Virus record (IMG/VR): IMGVR_UViG_3300025865_000001 | Origin: an uncultured virus (IMG/VR IMGVR_UViG_3300025865_000001) | Taxonomy: Duplodnaviria > Heunggongvirae > Uroviricota > Caudoviricetes | Length of the DNA: 60,635 nucleotides | Direction: 5' to 3' (one strand) | Shown: one piece after another, positions 28,362-50,846 of the stretch | How positions within the stretch are numbered: position 1 is the stretch's first letter | Layout of the letters: the number at the start of each line of letters is the position of its first letter | Made by a program: the position numbers and the translations under genes | Notes under the pieces: model-generated | The model's input: the letters and a program-made list of their open reading frames with translations, nothing else | Told to the model about the DNA's origin: nothing | The model's database searches: none

Positions 28362-28916
28362 TCATTTTGCACACTCATAACCACCTTTCTGAGTTTCAAA
28401 TCTCTGAGACCAGCGACGTGTAGCACTTCTGCTCATTTTTTGCTTCGTTTTCTCGGATAAATGTTTGCCCTTGTTAACTTCGGATAGACGTTTACACGTT
28501 TCTTTGGTGTGGTGCTTACCTTTATGCGAATCAGACATTAGTTTGCGTGTTTCGTCAGACATAGGAGGTCTTGTTTTCCAAGCCTCCCGCATCTTGTGCT
28601 TTGCTTCTTCCGAAAGTTTGATTCCCAAGTTGCTTCCGGCTTTTTGACGAATATTATAGGAGGGCTTTAGCCCTTTAATTAGCACATCCTCGTAATAAAG
28701 TAGGTTTTCGATGTCGCAGTATAAAATAAATTTAAACTCAAAACTGTCAGCACCAAGATTGTTCCAATCACGCTGAAGGTCAGTATTGTGGTGACGATTT
28801 GTACCCAATGTATAACGATGATATCGCCAACGTCTACGAAAATTAACAGCGCTCCCGATGTAAAAATCGCCCGTAATAGTATTGGCAATCTTATATATCC
28901 CACTAAGATATTGCAT
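28362..28916 (-). CDS. GIY-YIG homing endonuclease with NUMOD3 repeats
   Basis: GIYKI...YIGSA, HSEETKxKMS-like repeats. Confidence 0.9.
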   Translation of the reverse strand: MQYLSGIYKIANTITGDFYIGSAVNFRRRWRYHRYTLGTNRHHNTDLQRDWNNLGADSFEFKFILYCDIENLLYYEDVLIKGLKPSYNIRQKAGSNLGIKLSEEAKHKMREAWKTRPPMSDETRKLMSDSHKGKHHTKETCKRLSEVNKGKHLSEKTKQKMSRSATRRWSQRFETQKGGYECAK

Positions 28917-30194: not shown

Positions 30195-30198
30195 ATAG

Positions 30199-30269
30199 CA
30201 ACCCGCAGTTGACTCGAACAACTATCGTCTGTTTTGAAGGCAGACATGTTACCATTTACACCAGCGAGT
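30199..30269 (-). tRNA. tRNA with TCA anticodon (Trp-derived opal suppressor)
   Basis: Acceptor and T stems identical to adjacent tRNA-Trp; loop CT-TCA-AA; C-A mismatch at 31:39; short variable arm. Confidence 0.8.
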
Positions 30270-30274
30270 TATAG

Positions 30275-31986: not shown

Positions 31987-32055
31987 ATTTCCCTTTCATT
32001 TATTCCCCTTATTTGCATATTTATTCGGGGAGGTAGAGATTCTATCTCTGAGGAG

Positions 32056-32311
32056 TAGGGTAGCCGAGATTCGGACTCGGTTACGGGATTTTATGTCGGA
32101 AATGTTAGAGTGTAGATATTAGACTACCGCTCCTAACGCGCTCAAACTACCTATTCGATACACGTATCCTGTGCGACCACCTCTTATTGCGTTGATTCCT
32201 ATCCATTTAAGTAACGTTTCAGATACAGATAGGGGCTTGTCAATTCAAGCTCAACTCGTAGCCAAGTCTTTTCCCGTTCAGTCGCGTAGCTGTTCCACCA
32301 GCTGCTACCCT
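32056..32311 (-). ncRNA. 256-nt structured RNA with tRNA-like ends
   Basis: Acceptor AGGGTAG/CTACCCT, D-like GCTG/CAGC, T-arm CCGAG-TCCGAAT-CTCGG, closing helix ACGGGA/TCCCGT around a ~190-nt multi-hairpin insert. Confidence 0.65.
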
Positions 32312-32313
32312 AA

Positions 32314-32385
32314 TGGAGCTTGAGGGTACTGCCCCCTCTTTTTCTCCTTGCAAGAGAGATGTAATTCCTTCTATACTAAAGCCCC
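32314..32385 (-). tRNA. tRNA-Ala(TGC)
   Basis: GGGGCTT/AAGCTCC with G3:U70, loop CT-TGC-AA; atypical T-loop GGCAGTA. Confidence 0.8.
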
Positions 32386-32652
32386 GATGTTAAAGTACTA
32401 AGTTGTGTGCCCCTTATTCGCACATTTATTCGGGGCAATCTTGTACGGTTTTCCTTCGCAAGTAGCATTCCGGCAATCCCTACCAATGCTCCCTTCTCCT
32501 TCTCTTGCAAAGTACTTCATTGTGCCAAGATTTTCTTACTTACCCAAATCGCTATATTGGGTTTTGCTCTTTATTTTTCGCATTTATTCAGAGCAGTCTT
32601 GTCTCCACCGTAATGATTGTTTGCGCGTCAAGACTTAACACGTTCATGCTAT

Positions 32653-32776
32653 TGGGGCAGTCAGGATTTGAACCTGATGCGCTTCTTGTGGTAAGGTTCT
32701 TTACTGCGTATATACTTCCACGGTTGGTTGTCGCGCCACCTGTTATGTTGTGTGTTCTCATCCACACCGCTGCCTC
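32653..32776 (-). ncRNA. 124-nt tRNA-like RNA without a canonical anticodon arm
   Basis: GAGGCAG/CTGCCCC, GTGT/ACAC D-like arm, TCAGG-TTCAAAT-CCTGA T-arm. Confidence 0.55.
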
Positions 32777-32785
32777 AATTTTGAA

Positions 32786-32892
32786 CTCGCCCTTATTTCA
32801 GTTGCATAGCGAGTAGCAACTCACATTTTCCAGTGCATAGAACTCACCGGCTCGACCTTATTTTAGTTCCATATCGAGTAGGAACTCACATT
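32786..32892 (-). ncRNA. Two 42-nt H-type pseudoknot repeats (type III antitoxin-like)
   Basis: AATGTG-AGTTGC-TA-CTCGC-TAT-GCAACT-GAAATAAGG-GCGAG and AATGTG-AGTTCC-TA-CTCGA-TAT-GGAACT-AAAATAAGG-TCGAG; 4 of 5 differences are compensatory. Confidence 0.8.
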
Positions 32893-32915
32893 GAAGAGAA
32901 CTGTTCTCCAGCGAA

Positions 32916-33137
32916 TCAGGCTGGGGGTAAAAATAAGTGATAGTCGGCAACAGTCTTTCCGTTTTCGTTCATAATATATATTTTGCCTGAACTAAAAGTT
33001 TCTACTGGAGCGTCTTTATACCACACAAACAAACTTGCTTGTTTTCCTATTATTGTTGGAAGATTATATCTAACACTTTCAACATCGGATTTTACAAACT
33101 CACTACCGTCTTCTTCAACTACTTTAATTGTAAACAT
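32916..33137 (-). CDS. Hypothetical 73-aa protein
   Basis: MFTIKVVEEDG...IYIMNENGKTV; RBS AGGAG. Confidence 0.7.
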   Translation of the reverse strand: MFTIKVVEEDGSEFVKSDVESVRYNLPTIIGKQASLFVWYKDAPVETFSSGKIYIMNENGKTVADYHLFLPPA

Positions 33138-33172
33138 GTTTCTTCTCCTGATTCTACTTCTTCTGATATGCT

Positions 33173-33349
33173 GGCACTTTCGTCTCCGGTGTATTATCGT
33201 GCCCGCCGGAAGGCATTTTCGCCTTCTCCACATGGGAGGGGCGTCCCCAGCCTACAGCCGACTGGTGGGCTTTTGGGAGTTCCTAAAGTGCGCATCGTTG
33301 AGAGGCGTAGGAACTTCACCGTTTGGCTGGCAATTACCTTTTAGGCTAG
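33173..33349 (-). ncRNA. Rod-shaped RNA (33247-33349) plus pseudoknot/hairpin (33173-33226)
   Basis: Nested stems CTAGCCTA/TAGGCTGG, CAGCCAA/TCGGCTG, GGTG/CACC, AGTTCCTA/TAGGAACT; crossing TCCGG/CCGGA and GGCAC/GTGCC. Confidence 0.5.
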
Positions 33350-33360
33350 TCCAGTCAAGT

Positions 33361-33433
33361 AGCGGGTGATGAGGCTTGAACTCATAACTTTCTCTTTGGT
33401 AAAGAGATGTTCTACCAATTGAACTATACCCGC
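33361..33433 (-). tRNA. tRNA-Gly(ACC)
   Basis: GCG...CGC acceptor with U discriminator, TCTCT-TTACCAA-AGAGA. Confidence 0.82.
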
Positions 33434-34636: not shown

Positions 34637-35779
34637 TTATCCTTTAATGCTAGCCAAAGGAGTTAATTCCACAATCGCCTTTACTAAGTCTTTTTGATTT
34701 TCCATTACAACATCTATCGGTTTATAAGCGCCTGGAGCTTCGTCTAGGTCTTGGATAGTTCGTAAACCATGAATAATTCCAGCCATTTTTTTTTGTTCTT
34801 CTTCTAGATTTAAAGTTCTTCCTGCTTCCTTTCTTCCCATGCGTCTTCCTGCACCATGTGAAGATGACTCAAAGCTATCAGCGTTTCCAAGCCCTTCGGT
34901 GATATAGCTTTTTGTTCCCATTGAGCCTGGAATAATACCCCGTAATCCTAATGTTGCTTTGGTTGCACCTTTTCTATGAACAAGGACGTTTTGTCCAAAG
35001 TGATGTTCCATAATCGCATAATTGTGATGAATATTTACCCTGTCTAGTTCTGAACAAACATTAGTAGCGGAAACAATACCCATTATTCTATCCATCATAA
35101 GAGCACGATTTGCAAAAGCGAAATCAAGACAATAATTCATCGCTGTTAAGTATTCTTGCCCTTCTATTGTGTCCAAAGGTAAAAATGCAAGGTCTTTATC
35201 TGGAATATTAGATACCCATTGTTCACAAAGTGTCTGTGCTTTTTTATGGTATTCAGTGGCAGTTTTTAATCCAAAATTACGACTTCCAGAATGTAGCATT
35301 ACCCAAATATGACCGTCGTTTCCTTTTTGAATTTCAATAAAATGATTTCCTCCGCCAAGTGTTCCCAATTGGCTTCTTGCAGAAGTTAATTCTTTTTGAA
35401 TAATTGCAATATCAGGAGCATTGTCAAAACCAGCCCATCCTTGATTTTCTTTTTGGTGTGAAAAACCCACTGGAACTACTTTACGAATTTCTCCCATAAT
35501 AGTTTTAATGGATTCGGTATCTATATCCGTAAGAGATGTTTTAACGGCAGACATCCCGCACCCGATATCAACTCCGACTGCGTTTGGGATTATTACTTCT
35601 TTGGTTGCCATGACTCCGCCAATGGGCATACCATAGCCCTGATGACTGTCTGGCATGATGGCAATCCATTTGACTGCGAATGGATGGTTAGCTAAATTCT
35701 TAGCTTGAGCCAATGCCCCGTCTTCAATATCATCGAGCCACAATTTAATCGGAAGTTTTTCAGTATCAATAACTCTCAT
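34637..35779 (-). CDS. rtcB: RtcB RNA ligase
   Basis: MPDSHQGYG, VGVDIGCG, LGGGNHFIE, HSGSR, HRKG, HGAGR, DEAPGAYK. Confidence 0.95.
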   Translation of the reverse strand: MRVIDTEKLPIKLWLDDIEDGALAQAKNLANHPFAVKWIAIMPDSHQGYGMPIGGVMATKEVIIPNAVGVDIGCGMSAVKTSLTDIDTESIKTIMGEIRKVVPVGFSHQKENQGWAGFDNAPDIAIIQKELTSARSQLGTLGGGNHFIEIQKGNDGHIWVMLHSGSRNFGLKTATEYHKKAQTLCEQWVSNIPDKDLAFLPLDTIEGQEYLTAMNYCLDFAFANRALMMDRIMGIVSATNVCSELDRVNIHHNYAIMEHHFGQNVLVHRKGATKATLGLRGIIPGSMGTKSYITEGLGNADSFESSSHGAGRRMGRKEAGRTLNLEEEQKKMAGIIHGLRTIQDLDEAPGAYKPIDVVMENQKDLVKAIVELTPLASIKG

Positions 35780-35851: not shown

Positions 35852-38488
35852 TTATGTTATTCCATTTGGGTTCTCTTCGACTCTGCCCTTTCCGTGACAT
35901 ACCCAGCATTCGACAGCTTTAGGATATGGCTCATACCACTTTGTTACGTCTACCATGCCACTACCATTACAGTTACGACACTGATAACCGAATATCTTCC
36001 TAAACAGGTTTATAATTTTCATTCGTCCTCCCCGATAATCTTGTTCGCGAGTGCGAAGCAAAACCCTGTCCCTAAAATTGCCCCAGCATAGTTGACAGCT
36101 TGCACTATGCCGATATTTACTCCGGTAAGCTGAATACACCTTCCCGCTAATATTGCAAACAAGATAACAAAGATTCTATCTAACGTTTTCATTTCTCACC
36201 TCCTTCTGGTGGAACAAAACAACCACACCTGTAACAAAATCGCAATATCACTCCATAATCCATACGTAACCAACCCCACATGTGTTCACAATATTTACAC
36301 ATTTTTCTTACCGCCTAGCGCAGCCAGCGCGACTTCTGCCTTTTCAATGTGCGTCAATGCTGCATCAGCACCTTTCTGTGTTCCTAGTCTGTAGCAGACC
36401 ATCAATGCTCGGCGCCCATCGGAGATTTGCTGTGTCCATTTCAGTCGCTTCTCTGACACTATCAACCGCACCTGAGTGTCGGCAAGGTCACGACTGAGAC
36501 GTTCTATTTCAGCAAGCGCCACTAATGCTGCATCGGCAACTTGCGAGTCCCAACTGCCGTAAGCGTCTGGGTTGCTACCTTGCCACTCTTTGTAGGAAAG
36601 GCATTGTTCTTTCAATTCGTCTAGGTTCATTCCACACTCTACTTTGCTTGAACGTAAATAAGATAAGGCGACCCAGAGTTATACAGGTCTAATTTAGCTT
36701 TCACACTATACTCGTTCATTGCTAAAATCTCACACATTCTCCTTGCATCTTTTTCGTCTTGAATTTCAAAGACAATAGTTTGTTGCAATTCCTCACTCAC
36801 TTCACACTCTCCTTCTCATAATCCATAGATGATTGTTTTATAGAACAAGTACCGTCACGATGAACTATCAATACGACATAGGGTAAGTTGTCTTTCTTTG
36901 CTGAGTACACCAACATACCAACACTGTTATAGTCTATGTAAGACGGGTCGTCTGCCTTTTCTGCCATCGAATAACGGTGATCTCGAAACGCTCCACCTAT
37001 TGAATTGGCGTGCCAAATTATTACTTCATGGGGAAATAATTTGTACCTTTCCGAAAACTCAAATCGTTTCTTATTCATTTATCGCTCTCCTTTGCTTTGG
37101 TCGCTTCCCATTCAGTTACAAGGGCATTAGCAATTTCAATAATCTTGACCATTCTACGGGAATTCCATTGTGAATCTGTCATGTATGTCACGGGGTGTAG
37201 TGGCTCTGGTATCACCCCCGCTTGTGCTAGTTCTCGAAGTTTACCGAGTCCCTCCACCAGTTTCTCAATCAGTACATCACGAGAGGCAAGTTGTTGTGCA
37301 GTTACTTTCTTGTCTTCATTCAACACACAAAAGTCTTTTATGTCGAATGGAGAACTCTGTTTTTTGTATAGATACAATGCGCCATTTCCGTAATCTTTAG
37401 TGCCATATCCTTTTCCTCGGAGAATATAATGGTTATCACACTCCGTTGCTTCAAATTCAATTCCACTTGGAACACCAGTCCAAAAACCAAAATCTTGCCC
37501 ATAAGTAAATTTATTATCTTTAGGAAATTTAACTCGCATATTATTCCTCACCGCCTTCTATTGCTTTACTTTCACCAACAAGTTTACCCCACCTACGCAT
37601 ATAGTTACCAAACCCCAACAGGTACTTAAGCACACTTGCCATTTCCCACCCAAGTTTAATCATTTTTTTGATAAGAACGTTACGTTCAGCAAGTTTGGCT
37701 TCAAGGGAAATATTCAATAAAAGTAGGTTTTGAATATTATCAGTCATTTTAAAAACTTCATTAGCTATTTTCGGTATCTCGAATTCAAATCTCGATGGGT
37801 TTCCTACATGTAAATAAATGGCTTTTCCACAACATGGACAAAGTTGTTCTGTATTGGTACTCATTTAGTCTCCTTTTTCACATGGTGGCAACAAATTTGT
37901 AACCATCCGAGTTGTAAATCCCATTTTATAACATTCCACATATATCGGTCAAAGAAAACCAAGAAAAATCTAAATGGCTCATTAAAGCGCCAAGTAAAAT
38001 CTAATTTGCCTTTCATTTCATTTCCTTCCATATGTTTGCAAGGTTTCTCCAATCAAAATACACGTCCATATCATCCCGTGTATCAATACTTGCAAGAATG
38101 GCTAACTTATCTCCCACCTTTACCAGTTGTTCGATAAACGCATCGCGTTTAGCAAGCTTGGTAAGTAGGGCATCTTTCGGGAATCTTAAAATTCGTGCCC
38201 CACAAGCTCCACACATATCAAAAACCTCGCCATCACGAGCCTCGTCTACCCCTTGCTCGTGTCCACACATTTGGCATTTCATTTCGTCTCCTTGTTTTGT
38301 TTTAGACTAAAACCGTCGCAAGATACCAACCATATGGGGTCGAAATTAAATGGCCACATAAACCATCCGCTTCTAACGCCATGAGGAACTCCACTTACTT
38401 TTGATTTACGATTAGAACATTCGCTATGAGCATCCCCTAGAACGTCTTGTCTGTGAGTGCATTCGTAACAATTAGGTTTTTCGTTCAT
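35852..38488 (-). CDS. Array of small hypothetical ORFs (e.g. 36295..36630, 36797..37078, 37075..37551, 37541..37864, 37861..38052, 38013..38282, 38279..38488)
   Basis: Tightly packed, translationally coupled; several share a C-terminal module. Confidence 0.65.
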
Positions 38489-39411
38489 TTTGTCTCCATG
38501 TCGTTTACTACGTTATCGGGATTTTCTATCTGTATTCTATACCATTCTGGAAAACCCTTTGTTATACCTCGTGATATTTTTTGCCAGGCGAAAGTGAAAA
38601 ATCGTTCCATGATTTCGTCTTTGCATTCTTTTAGAACATCCTGATTTACCTCTTTTAGAAGCGCCGGAATGTCCTGCATTTCACCTTGAAGTTCTCCAGA
38701 ATCACGCAAATGTTGAACAGCCTTTTGCCAACGAGACTCGGTTCGATATGCCTCTGTCAATTCTTGGACAATATCAGTGGTAGTTGGATTAATCTTTTTC
38801 CAGTTAACGGCGTTTATTTCCTGAAAGTCAGAACGTACAATTTTTGCCATTGCAACTTTCTTTTCAGCGGTGAATACACTGTAATTCTTGATAACAACTC
38901 CCTCAATTTTTGTACCACCGAGAATTGAATCATGTGCTAACCAATCTGGTTGCATTGTATCAATAGTAGTTTTTGCAAACACTCCCTCAACAAAGCATGG
39001 CACTACTTCTAACCCAATCCGTTCCGCTTCTTTTTGAACATCGGCATAAGGTAAGTAACTTTCCAAGCCGTCACAAATGTCGAATAGGATAATGTTATTT
39101 TTTGGAACACGCCAGTAAACGAGTGTGTTGTGCTTGGGTTTTCTTAGATATTCACCTCGATACGTCCAATTAGGGTGAAGTTGTAAACGATTATTGTTTG
39201 CCCATTCGGCTGCAAGATTGAACATTCCTTCTGGCTTATCAACGTTTATTTCGGCATTTTTTGAACGCATACTGAGAACCAAATCATCATCAACGCCAAA
39301 CGAAATTTGAGAACCGTCAACCTTTTCTTGAATAATGACGTGACCATTTAGAACATCGGCAACCATCTTGTGTCCTAAAGCGCAAACGTCGGGATACCCG
39401 TGTAAATGCAT
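38485..39411 (-). CDS. ATP-dependent RNA ligase (Rnl2-like)
   Basis: QEKVDGS motif I, YRGE, LFDI, EGVVIK, AKIV. Confidence 0.85.
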   Translation of the reverse strand: MHLHGYPDVCALGHKMVADVLNGHVIIQEKVDGSQISFGVDDDLVLSMRSKNAEINVDKPEGMFNLAAEWANNNRLQLHPNWTYRGEYLRKPKHNTLVYWRVPKNNIILFDICDGLESYLPYADVQKEAERIGLEVVPCFVEGVFAKTTIDTMQPDWLAHDSILGGTKIEGVVIKNYSVFTAEKKVAMAKIVRSDFQEINAVNWKKINPTTTDIVQELTEAYRTESRWQKAVQHLRDSGELQGEMQDIPALLKEVNQDVLKECKDEIMERFFTFAWQKISRGITKGFPEWYRIQIENPDNVVNDMETK

Positions 39412-49766: not shown

Positions 49767-50846
49767 TTATGATGGTAAAGTACTTGCGATTTTCTCCCAG
49801 TCAACGCTTCGTGGGTTAAAACTAATATCTATGATGTTATTATACGCTTTACCCGTATTTAAAAGTGTAACAGGAATGCCAGTTTCTTTTTCGATTTTAT
49901 CAACGAAAAGTCTTGCTCCCTTTGTAATATCACTCCAAGTTTTTGCGTTCTTTACTTCTGGGAAAGCGTGCTCCAGGAAGGTAAGAGCTATTTGCGTAGC
50001 GCCATTGACTTCTACTGCCTTTTTTAGCATATCAAAATCAAACTCGGCTTTTCTACGAATTTTCCCTTCGATAGAACTTATTTCGACCAATCCTCTGTCG
50101 ATAATTTCTTGTTCAGATAATTCTCTACCAGCACCCATGTCGTTTGCAGAATATTGACTCCCCTCACGTGAAGGCATTGCCTTGACAACAAGTATAACAT
50201 CTTTAATATTTTTCCAGGATAGTAAAACATCATCGGCAACTGCCATTGCCGTTACGTTATCAGATGTCACATTGGGATAGTCTGGTGAAAAAGCCAAAGA
50301 TAGAAAAGTGCCCTGTGAACCTTCTATAACAACCGAATTATCTTTACATGCCTTATTTATTTCTTCACCTACATCCATTATCATTCCAGATAATGCAGGG
50401 ATATCTTTTGCTTGTTGAGCCTTACGTGCAACAAAATCTTTTCGGCATTCGCCAGTTCCACTCATGGTTGAGCCAATAGCTTTCATGCCCTTGCTATCTT
50501 GTTCTTTTTGAATATGTTCCGTTGTAACAATAGGTGAACGATAATCCACAAATACTCTGCCATCAAGATGATACCTTGCTATTTCTTTAAATAACCAGTC
50601 TGGATTTACAGCCACCCCAGAGCCGATAAGAACTTTAGTTTCTGGATTAAAAATCCATCCTAACGGCAGTTGGTTGCATTTCAAGTATGTTTTCTCGTCT
50701 TCCAAAAATATACCATGTTCTGCATTTGGCCCTGTTCCGCCCCTTGCAGCAAATTTAGCATGGTCTCGTACATTAATATAAGCACTAATTAAACCCTTGC
50801 CCTCATCTCCCCAAGCCCCACCAATAATAATATTTGCACCATTCAT
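49767..50846 (-). CDS. Adenylosuccinate synthetase-family protein (short archaeal type, divergent active site)
   Basis: WGDEGKG, GPNAEH, EGSQG, YPNVTS, NGATQIALT. Confidence 0.88.
   Translation of the reverse strand: MNGANIIIGGAWGDEGKGLISAYINVRDHAKFAARGGTGPNAEHGIFLEDEKTYLKCNQLPLGWIFNPETKVLIGSGVAVNPDWLFKEIARYHLDGRVFVDYRSPIVTTEHIQKEQDSKGMKAIGSTMSGTGECRKDFVARKAQQAKDIPALSGMIMDVGEEINKACKDNSVVIEGSQGTFLSLAFSPDYPNVTSDNVTAMAVADDVLLSWKNIKDVILVVKAMPSREGSQYSANDMGAGRELSEQEIIDRGLVEISSIEGKIRRKAEFDFDMLKKAVEVNGATQIALTFLEHAFPEVKNAKTWSDITKGARLFVDKIEKETGIPVTLLNTGKAYNNIIDISFNPRSVDWEKIASTLPS

Follow-up and report, generated by a model that had tools for sequence, protein, structure and literature searches.

The window (the whole stretch of DNA that was analyzed, 60,635 nucleotides, deposited as IMG/VR record IMGVR_UViG_3300025865_000001 from an uncultured virus assigned to Caudoviricetes) encodes a DNA polymerase III alpha-type polymerase, a primase-helicase, a ribonucleotide reductase, and a tail fiber protein. 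Among cultured phages, those of Geobacillus, Lactococcus, Psychrobacillus, and Clostridioides carry the closest relatives of this polymerase (36-40% identity). Essentially all genes from ~11 to 51 kb lie on the minus strand, and the window also carries a seven-tRNA cluster and scattered tRNAs, every one of them on the same strand, together with two RNA ligase genes that adjoin tRNA genes (Table 1). Between a small open reading frame (ORF) and a tRNA-like remnant are exactly two direct copies of a 42-nt sequence (32786-32827 and 32851-32892; 88% identical; start-to-start period of 65 nt), likewise oriented on the minus strand. Public sequencing runs that contain this repeat region are labeled as peat and soil metagenomes. 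The tRNA-like remnant has a good T-arm and a 6/7 acceptor stem and spans ~125 nt; it was reported by ARAGORN only, with introns allowed and the threshold lowered, and Rfam reported no tRNA there at E ≤ 10.

Table 1. Repeat units and other features of the window (CM R1, covariance model built in this study; S1 and S2, first and second pseudoknot stems)
Feature	Positions	Strand	Remarks
CptI-like unit, copy 1 (46 nt)	32782..32827	-	S1 GUUGC/GCAAC plus A-U, S2 CUCGC/GCGAG; CM R1 65.3 bits, E = 4e-15
CptI-like unit, copy 2	32847..32892	-	S1 GUUCC/GGAAC, S2 CUCGA/UCGAG; CM R1 58.5 bits, E = 4e-13
Spacer between copies	32830..32850	-	Possible hairpin CCGGUG-AGUUCUAUG-CACUGG; contains GUGAGUUCUAUGCAC
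ORF, 73 aa	32916..33137	-	phrog_3909 (unknown function), E = 1e-7; ends 24 nt before copy 2
tRNA-like remnant, uncertain	32652..32777	-	GAGGCAG ... T-arm GGUUCAAAUCCUGA CUGCCCC A; a few nt after copy 1
tRNA-Gly(ACC)	33361..33433	-	Upstream of repeats
tRNA	32314..32385	-	Downstream of repeats; Rfam only, 45.2 bits
RtcB-type RNA ligase	34637..35779	-	phrog_1075, E = 8.8e-125; 1.7 kb upstream of repeats
Second RNA ligase	38485..39411	-	Adjoins tRNA genes, as does RtcB
tRNA, anticodon UCA	30198..30270	-	Normal length; ARAGORN label SeC
Second hairpin family	32005..32030	-	
Second hairpin family	32410..32435	-	
Second hairpin family	about 32570..32602	-	
ORF similar to phrog_1211	49767..50846	-	Adenylosuccinate-synthetase-like (PurZ-like)
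GIY-YIG/NUMOD3 homing endonuclease	28362..28916	-	Just past the tRNA cluster

Read on the minus strand, the copies consist of AAUGUG-A, GUUGC/GUUCC (copy 1/copy 2), UA, CUCGC/CUCGA, UAU, GCAAC/GGAAC, U, R-AAAUAAGG, and GCGAG/UCGAG. Each folds as an H-type pseudoknot with a first stem (S1) of 6 bp, a UA first loop (L1), a second stem (S2) of 5 bp, a UAU linker, and an A-rich loop ending in GG, with all 11 pairs formed. The loop lengths that an H-type pseudoknot needs are satisfied on the minus strand only (first loop, 2 nt; last loop, 9-10 nt). The five differences between the copies comprise one pair in S1 (G-C to C-G), one pair in S2 (C-G to A-U), and one loop base (G/A). The original prediction had described two 42-nt repeats 65 nt apart, a minus-strand H-type pseudoknot made of these same elements, and four compensatory differences out of five, one pair per stem, and each of these points was reproduced here. 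When five random substitutions were simulated 2,000,000 times, only 0.03% of the trials retained 11/11 pairs with at least two double changes. The 19-23 nt that separate the copies are nonrepeat sequence. The possible hairpin in this spacer includes one G.U pair, which on the plus strand would be A.C, and the stretch GUGAGUUCUAUGCAC within it resembles a CptI-like unit (see below) that has lost the 5' strand of S2 through an internal deletion.

Within the window, a pattern anchored on the loops of the pseudoknot (≤3 mismatches) matched the two copies only, against an expectation of 0.00 from 100 shuffles, and the covariance model described below likewise matched nothing but these copies. A generic descriptor of a 6+5-bp pseudoknot recovered five further sites in the window; a bare pseudoknot of this size is therefore not rare, and the significance of the copies rests on their repetition, their covariation, and their homology to CptI. 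Nested folding of 32640-32960 was no stabler than that of shuffled sequences (z = 0.02), a value that is uninformative because the copies fold as a pseudoknot. Two sequences, AAATAAGG and GAATAAATNNGC, were looked for as genome-wide motifs, and neither is one.

Homology to CptI units of bacterial cptIN loci

Rfam contains no family that matches the repeats at either gathering thresholds or E ≤ 10 (cmscan of 32300-33300 gave three matches, none overlapping them). A blastn search of the repeat region against cultured phages returned no match, and a pattern search with exact stems recovered only the window's own record. Thirteen loci retrieved through relatives of the RtcB and 73-aa ORF genes also contained no unit, the sole match (L017, E = 0.37) falling within an ORF. 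Since there was no Rfam family and close phage relatives lacked the element, we scanned a viral sequence collection for the loop sequences while allowing any bases in the two stems, and the matches were then filtered by pairing ability. In bacterial genomes, a loop-anchored pattern of this kind recovered 13 loci, all from Clostridia by record title. Five of them (L186, L192, L193, L194, and L196) contain two head-to-tail 46-nt units followed by a terminator hairpin and an ORF of ~160-175 aa, which is the textbook arrangement for a toxin-antitoxin system of type III; another (L190) has two units and a terminator followed by a broken toxin gene. Sigma70-like promoter hexamers were discerned by eye (no scan was run) 5' of the units in L190 and L188. 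The ORF of L193 matches the CptN toxin of PDB code 4RMO (E = 1.2e-26). Pfam offered no matching model for this ORF, and PADLOC, applied to two toxins adjoining homologous units, gave a marginal AbiQ match for that of L196 only (E = 0.0025).

A profile generated from five CptN-like toxins retrieved 80 further loci (L206-L285) that span Bacillota by title (Lachnospiraceae, Oscillospiraceae, Veillonella, Enterococcus, and others). A covariance model (CM R1) built from 23 phage and bacterial units detected 157 units in 79 of these 80 loci, all 5' of the toxin gene in the same orientation and nearly always in adjacent pairs; the record of the one remaining locus holds just 87 nt of upstream sequence. 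Both window copies score (Table 1) within the range of the bacterial units upstream of CptN (32.7-78.2 bits; n = 157). The closest bacterial unit differs from copy 1 in 4 alignment columns and from copy 2 in 8, and in three bacterial arrays, two of them with a broken or missing toxin gene, the first unit has exactly the sequence of one phage unit (L135).

The family as a whole displays strong covariation. In the 23 phage and bacterial units, 230/230 cells are paired and double changes occur at 6/10 pairs, a level reached in 0/500 shuffles. In an enlarged alignment of 150 units (110 distinct), 99.5% of 1,100 cells pair and 9/10 pairs show compensatory changes (again 0/500 shuffles reach this level), and controls in which the partner was slid pair in 18-31% of cells. 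The counts for S2 are unbiased because this stem was absent from the model used to fit the alignment. G.U pairs in the phage and bacterial units fit only the minus-strand orientation of the window. A unit variant in the metagenome contigs L286, L305, L323, and L356 (S1 UGUGC/GCACG or GCACA, S2 CACGA/UCGUG) leaves the loops unchanged and extends the covariation; in L305, a tRNA-His lies at a distance of 335 nt.

CptI_Er, the antitoxin of Eubacterium rectale, is described as an H-type pseudoknot of 45 nt in which the first loop is a single base and another loop is long and A-rich (PMC4627078). The window units resemble CptI (PDB code 4RMO) in being 45-46-nt H-type pseudoknots with two 5-bp stems, and CptI_Er in particular in the very short first loop, the UAU between the S2 5' and S1 3' strands, the 10-nt A-rich loop ending in GG, and the single-stranded tails with an A^AA junction where they join (as these are described in PMC4627078). 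The reverse complement of the one-repeat CptI_Er primer given in Table 2 of that report, read by eye, has its elements in the same order as the window units. Taken on sequence and covariation, the window repeats are complete units homologous to CptI, the antitoxin RNA of CptIN type III systems. The original prediction had called their geometry closest to CptI, and this assignment is borne out both by the comparison with CM R1, in which the copies score as bacterial units do, and by the presence of the same units in tandem upstream of CptN homologs.

ToxI and TenpI antitoxins share with the window units the organization as tandem pseudoknot repeats, which a cognate endoribonuclease processes and which in turn inhibit it; however, no sequence relation to them was seen, and the toxins beside homologous units match CptN. 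The preQ1-I type riboswitch, too, is a small pseudoknot of the H type, its first loop being 2 nt long and its third loop A-rich. The window units differ from it in having no Rfam match at E ≤ 10 and no consistent downstream ORF, and we set this likeness aside because homology to CptI accounts for the conserved loops. A preQ1-like riboswitch, a piece of tmRNA, and a minimal ribozyme, each considered on geometry or context, as well as a stop-codon read-through signal and a T4-type or sigma70 promoter, were dropped on finding the CptI homology.

Two further observations concern the bacterial arrays. In L206-L285, the middle pair of S1 (columns 11/26) reads U-A in 51 of the 110 distinct units and C-G in the other 59, and where both units of an array could be read, they usually differ at this pair (U-A and then C-G) and in the A-rich loop. 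A 2026 paper describes the known cptI repeats as near-identical. Nonidentity of adjacent units may prevent mispairing between repeats. Additionally, three bacterial contigs (L188, L189, and L198) carry two, one, and two CptI-like units, respectively, with no CptN ORF downstream; all three have a terminator-like hairpin, L188 has the sigma70-like hexamers mentioned above, and L189 adjoins a Phd/RelE-like pair (recognized by eye from the translations). Orphan CptI-like antitoxins are present outside recognized phages too.

Toxin-less units in phages and metagenomes

No toxin gene accompanies the units of the window. A tblastn search with five CptN proteins against its entire length gave a best E value of 0.6, and the neighboring ORFs produced no CptN-, ToxN-, or AbiQ-like match (Pfam on 12 ORFs; PADLOC on 10). 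CptN was searched for in the nearest record (G001) and was not found. The claim that the repeats are orphans, with no toxin gene following them, accordingly stood. Neither a sigma70-like promoter nor a terminator was called at the repeats, and no terminator with a same-strand cptN gene lies downstream of them as it would in a cptIN locus. The window units further differ from such loci in their 65-nt period and nonrepeat spacer: the 2012 survey lists head-to-tail cptI repeats of 40-48 nt in 1.9-3.4 copies, and it places all 33 of its 33 cptIN loci on chromosomes and none on a plasmid or phage (PMC3401426, Table 2), whereas the present units are phage located and copy 2 is devoid of a 3' junction. 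What the window does present is a toxin-less, antitoxin-like repeat carried by a phage, as expected of a phage antitoxin mimic. No report of a phage-borne CptI was found in the literature searched.

A scan of a viral sequence collection showed that the units recur: 13 matches in 12 contigs form 10/10 pairs, the best chance match forming 7/10. Four other viral records searched whole contain exactly one unit each, the window phage being the one with two. Five viral records carrying a unit were searched whole with the toxin profile, and none encodes CptN; two of these are rated 100% complete and have one unit apiece. The 2.5 kb on each side of the viral units were also checked, with no CptN found. 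The phage units occur in several types of context, namely, between a tRNA-Tyr and a small ORF followed by a tRNA-Ser, 3 nt before a tRNA-Ser, and next to a PhoH-like gene, where no tRNA lies less than 2.5 kb away. We considered the 73-aa ORF as part of a conserved module and rejected this, as only a 24-aa stretch is common to it and the small ORF beside another phage's unit (E = 0.003), which is too weak.

Among 71 metagenome loci with the motif, 13 have a CptN homolog that starts ≤400 nt downstream, another 27 lie no more than 400 nt from tRNA genes (mostly from one phage lineage and hence nonindependent), and 31 have neither CptN nor a tRNA within 1.2 kb. One of the metagenome units (L313) shares the S2 variant of copy 1, CUCGC/GCGAG. 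One unit-bearing phage type lies within large contigs of bacterial isolates (L187 and L191), apparently as a prophage. Three bacterial genomes carrying the tRNA-array phage type, also an apparent prophage, gave no CptN when searched with a single-protein query. Short soil and peat contigs (runs X5-X7) match the copy-2 unit alone (32850-32892) and then continue into unrelated sequence (G+C-rich in X6); the unit is therefore also present in other genomes of such habitats.

CptN cuts the CptI precursor to leave a 2',3'-cyclic phosphate on A45 of CptI_Er (PMC4627078), and from this position we predicted the cleavage sites of the units. Copy 1 has junction-like sequences on both sides (5' GGAA^AAUG and 3' UUCA^AAAU). 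Copy 2 lacks one A at its 5' junction (CUUC-AAUG) and carries a 3' tail of CCGG in place of UUCA, which makes it the sole unit among the 150 aligned without the 3' CA. Judged by these sequences, copy 1 is the likelier active unit, and copy 2 may be weaker or inactive. The sequence CA^AAU is retained on both sides in 4 of 5 other viral unit types inspected although their neighbors are nonrepeat sequence, the remaining type (L143) having AUA^AAU and UUUA^UAA instead; this retention in the absence of repeat neighbors argues that cutting by CptN still matters. Both window copies also have rare bases in the 5' tail, namely, a G at column 7 (7/150 units) and an A at column 8 (9/150).

A contig of a related strain (run X6, record 8) bears on constraint. 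It differs from the window at 24 positions over 583 nt, of which none falls in copy 2, two fall in copy 1 (both at the start of the variable loop), and five fall in the 23-nt spacer. The stretch 32828-32850 is the most variable, with 5 changes against 2 in the 84 nt of both repeats.

Possible role of the phage-borne units

Phage phiTE escapes ToxIN by means of a phage-encoded pseudo-ToxI RNA (PMC3475682), as the original prediction had stated, and by analogy with this precedent, a decoy function is the most likely one for the window units. We consider it probable that they act as a phage decoy against host CptN-mediated abortive infection. The carrier would be a phage of a Bacillota-type host, in which the CptI units would be cotranscribed with the genes of the tRNA region during infection. 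Host CptN, cutting at the conserved A^AAU junctions, tRNA-processing enzymes, or both would release an RNA of ~46 nt. Once the host's own labile CptI decays, the phage RNA would occupy CptN and so block abortive infection. A single CptI unit is reported to be fully antitoxic, and noncognate CptIs gave no protection (PMC4627078). ToxN, which had been proposed along with CptN as the target, is not plausible, since cross-protection by CptI is lacking even among CptN toxins in that report. Given such highly cognate-specific recognition and the rare tail bases of the window copies, binding to any particular CptN is not assured.

The similarity to phiTE is that of phage-borne, toxin-less type III antitoxin repeats, whose mimicry has been shown in phiTE and is proposed here. 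The pseudo-ToxI differs in belonging to the ToxI family, in being 36 nt long, and in being directed against ToxN; wild-type phiTE has 1.5 repeats, which cannot form a whole pseudoknot and are nonfunctional until expansion or recombination (PMC3475682). In contrast, whole CptI units occur naturally in several phage lineages and within tRNA gene regions. Phages with an antidote only are also exemplified by T4 Dmd and the orphan DarG-like antitoxins (PMC5086642), but these are proteins and not a 46-nt RNA.

We find it unlikely that the repeats are instead a decaying relic, that is, a captured host cptIN locus or antitoxin array whose toxin was lost and whose repeats are drifting without function. 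The noncanonical period, the spacer that looks like an internally deleted unit, and the loss of the 3' junction from copy 2 would accord with such an origin, and bacterial loci with a broken toxin or toxin-less arrays are known (L190, L198, L188, and L189). Nevertheless, the intercopy changes are compensatory rather than disruptive and leave both pseudoknots intact, the repeats changed less than the spacer in the related strain, and intact single units with both junctions recur across unrelated phage contexts, including two complete genomes. There is a slighter chance that the units are functional CptI used in conflicts between mobile elements, where they would disarm cptIN addiction (postsegregational killing) or protect lysogens rather than allow an escape from abortive infection. 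CptIN_Er is reported to stabilize plasmids and not to abort coliphages (PMC4627078), and one unit-bearing phage type is apparently a prophage (L187 and L191). Against this, the window phage seems large, with a DNA polymerase III alpha, primase-helicase, and ribonucleotide reductase of its own, and the lysogen genomes checked with a single-protein query show no CptN.

It is improbable that the repeats are a cis-acting element of the tRNA-region transcript, such as a processing or stability signal, that merely resembles CptI: although the element adjoins tRNA genes in most phage contexts and its flanks are conserved, its loops, tails, and junctions are nearly base for base those of the units upstream of cptN genes, the L135 phage unit has the same sequence as the leading unit in three bacterial arrays, and one phage's unit has no tRNA within 2.5 kb. 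We give hardly any credence to a DNA-level element, i.e., a promoter or protein-binding site composed of interleaved inverted repeats. While a TTGTTG-N16-TAAAAT arrangement can be read by eye in some family members, the -10-like hexamer is TGAAAT in many others, no promoter-like site was called at the repeats, and neither the compensatory changes at 9/10 pairs nor the strand-specific G.U pairs are expected of such a site. Against the relic, the cis-acting element, and the DNA site alike stand the compensatory changes, the preserved junctions, and the fact that units recur in complete phage genomes.

Returning to the decoy, we tentatively propose, with less assurance than for the decoy function itself, that several Bacillota phage lineages could have domesticated whole CptI units as RNA antidotes in highly expressed tRNA arrays, from which they would be released by tRNA-processing enzymes or by CptN at the retained CA^AAU. 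So far, RNA mimicry of type III antitoxins is known from one laboratory system, the phiTE escape mutants. New here are a different family (CptI), naturally complete units, and their occurrence in several phage lineages, mostly in tRNA arrays. CptIN has had no demonstrated antiphage role since its description in 2012: the only reported tests of phage resistance, performed in E. coli with coliphages, gave none (PMC3401426 and PMC4627078), and as of 2016 no antiphage activity of CptIN had been observed (PMC5086642). A phage-borne antidote is the counteradaptation expected if CptIN is an abortive-infection system. If the decoy reading is correct, the units would represent the first natural, nonlaboratory RNA antitoxin mimicry and the first, albeit indirect, evidence of CptIN acting against phages. 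The finding provides concrete RNA/toxin pairs, and it suggests that the intergenic "junk" of phage tRNA clusters can conceal antidefense RNAs.

RtcB ligates ends that carry a 2',3'-cyclic phosphate or a 3'-phosphate to ends with a 5'-OH. By virtue of this end chemistry, the RtcB ligase close to the repeats could rejoin RNAs that a CptN-type toxin has cut, and with the repeats it would constitute a small RNA-damage counterdefense region; should the decoy reading hold, the decoy may cooperate with RtcB in that the latter would reseal cuts bearing 2',3'-cyclic phosphates. The set made up of RtcB and the second RNA ligase could counter ribonuclease toxins that leave cyclic-phosphate ends.

The window has several other features of note. 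A tRNA with the anticodon UCA, situated beside a tRNA-Trp(CCA) in the seven-tRNA cluster, resembles a suppressor that reads UGA; genetic code 4, prompted by this tRNA, was tried and rejected, as the genes were not lengthened coherently. A second family of minus-strand hairpins has a 5-bp stem around the loop GAAUAAAUNUGCRAAUAA, with compensatory stems (GCCCC/GGGGC versus GCUCU/AGAGC), one copy being located just 5' of a 190-aa ORF and another just 5' of a tRNA (Table 1). The GIY-YIG/NUMOD3 homing endonuclease gene follows the tRNA cluster. Several DNA methyltransferases are also encoded, and a modified genome is hinted at by the ORF that matches phrog_1211, since the annotation of this family is modified-base synthesis.
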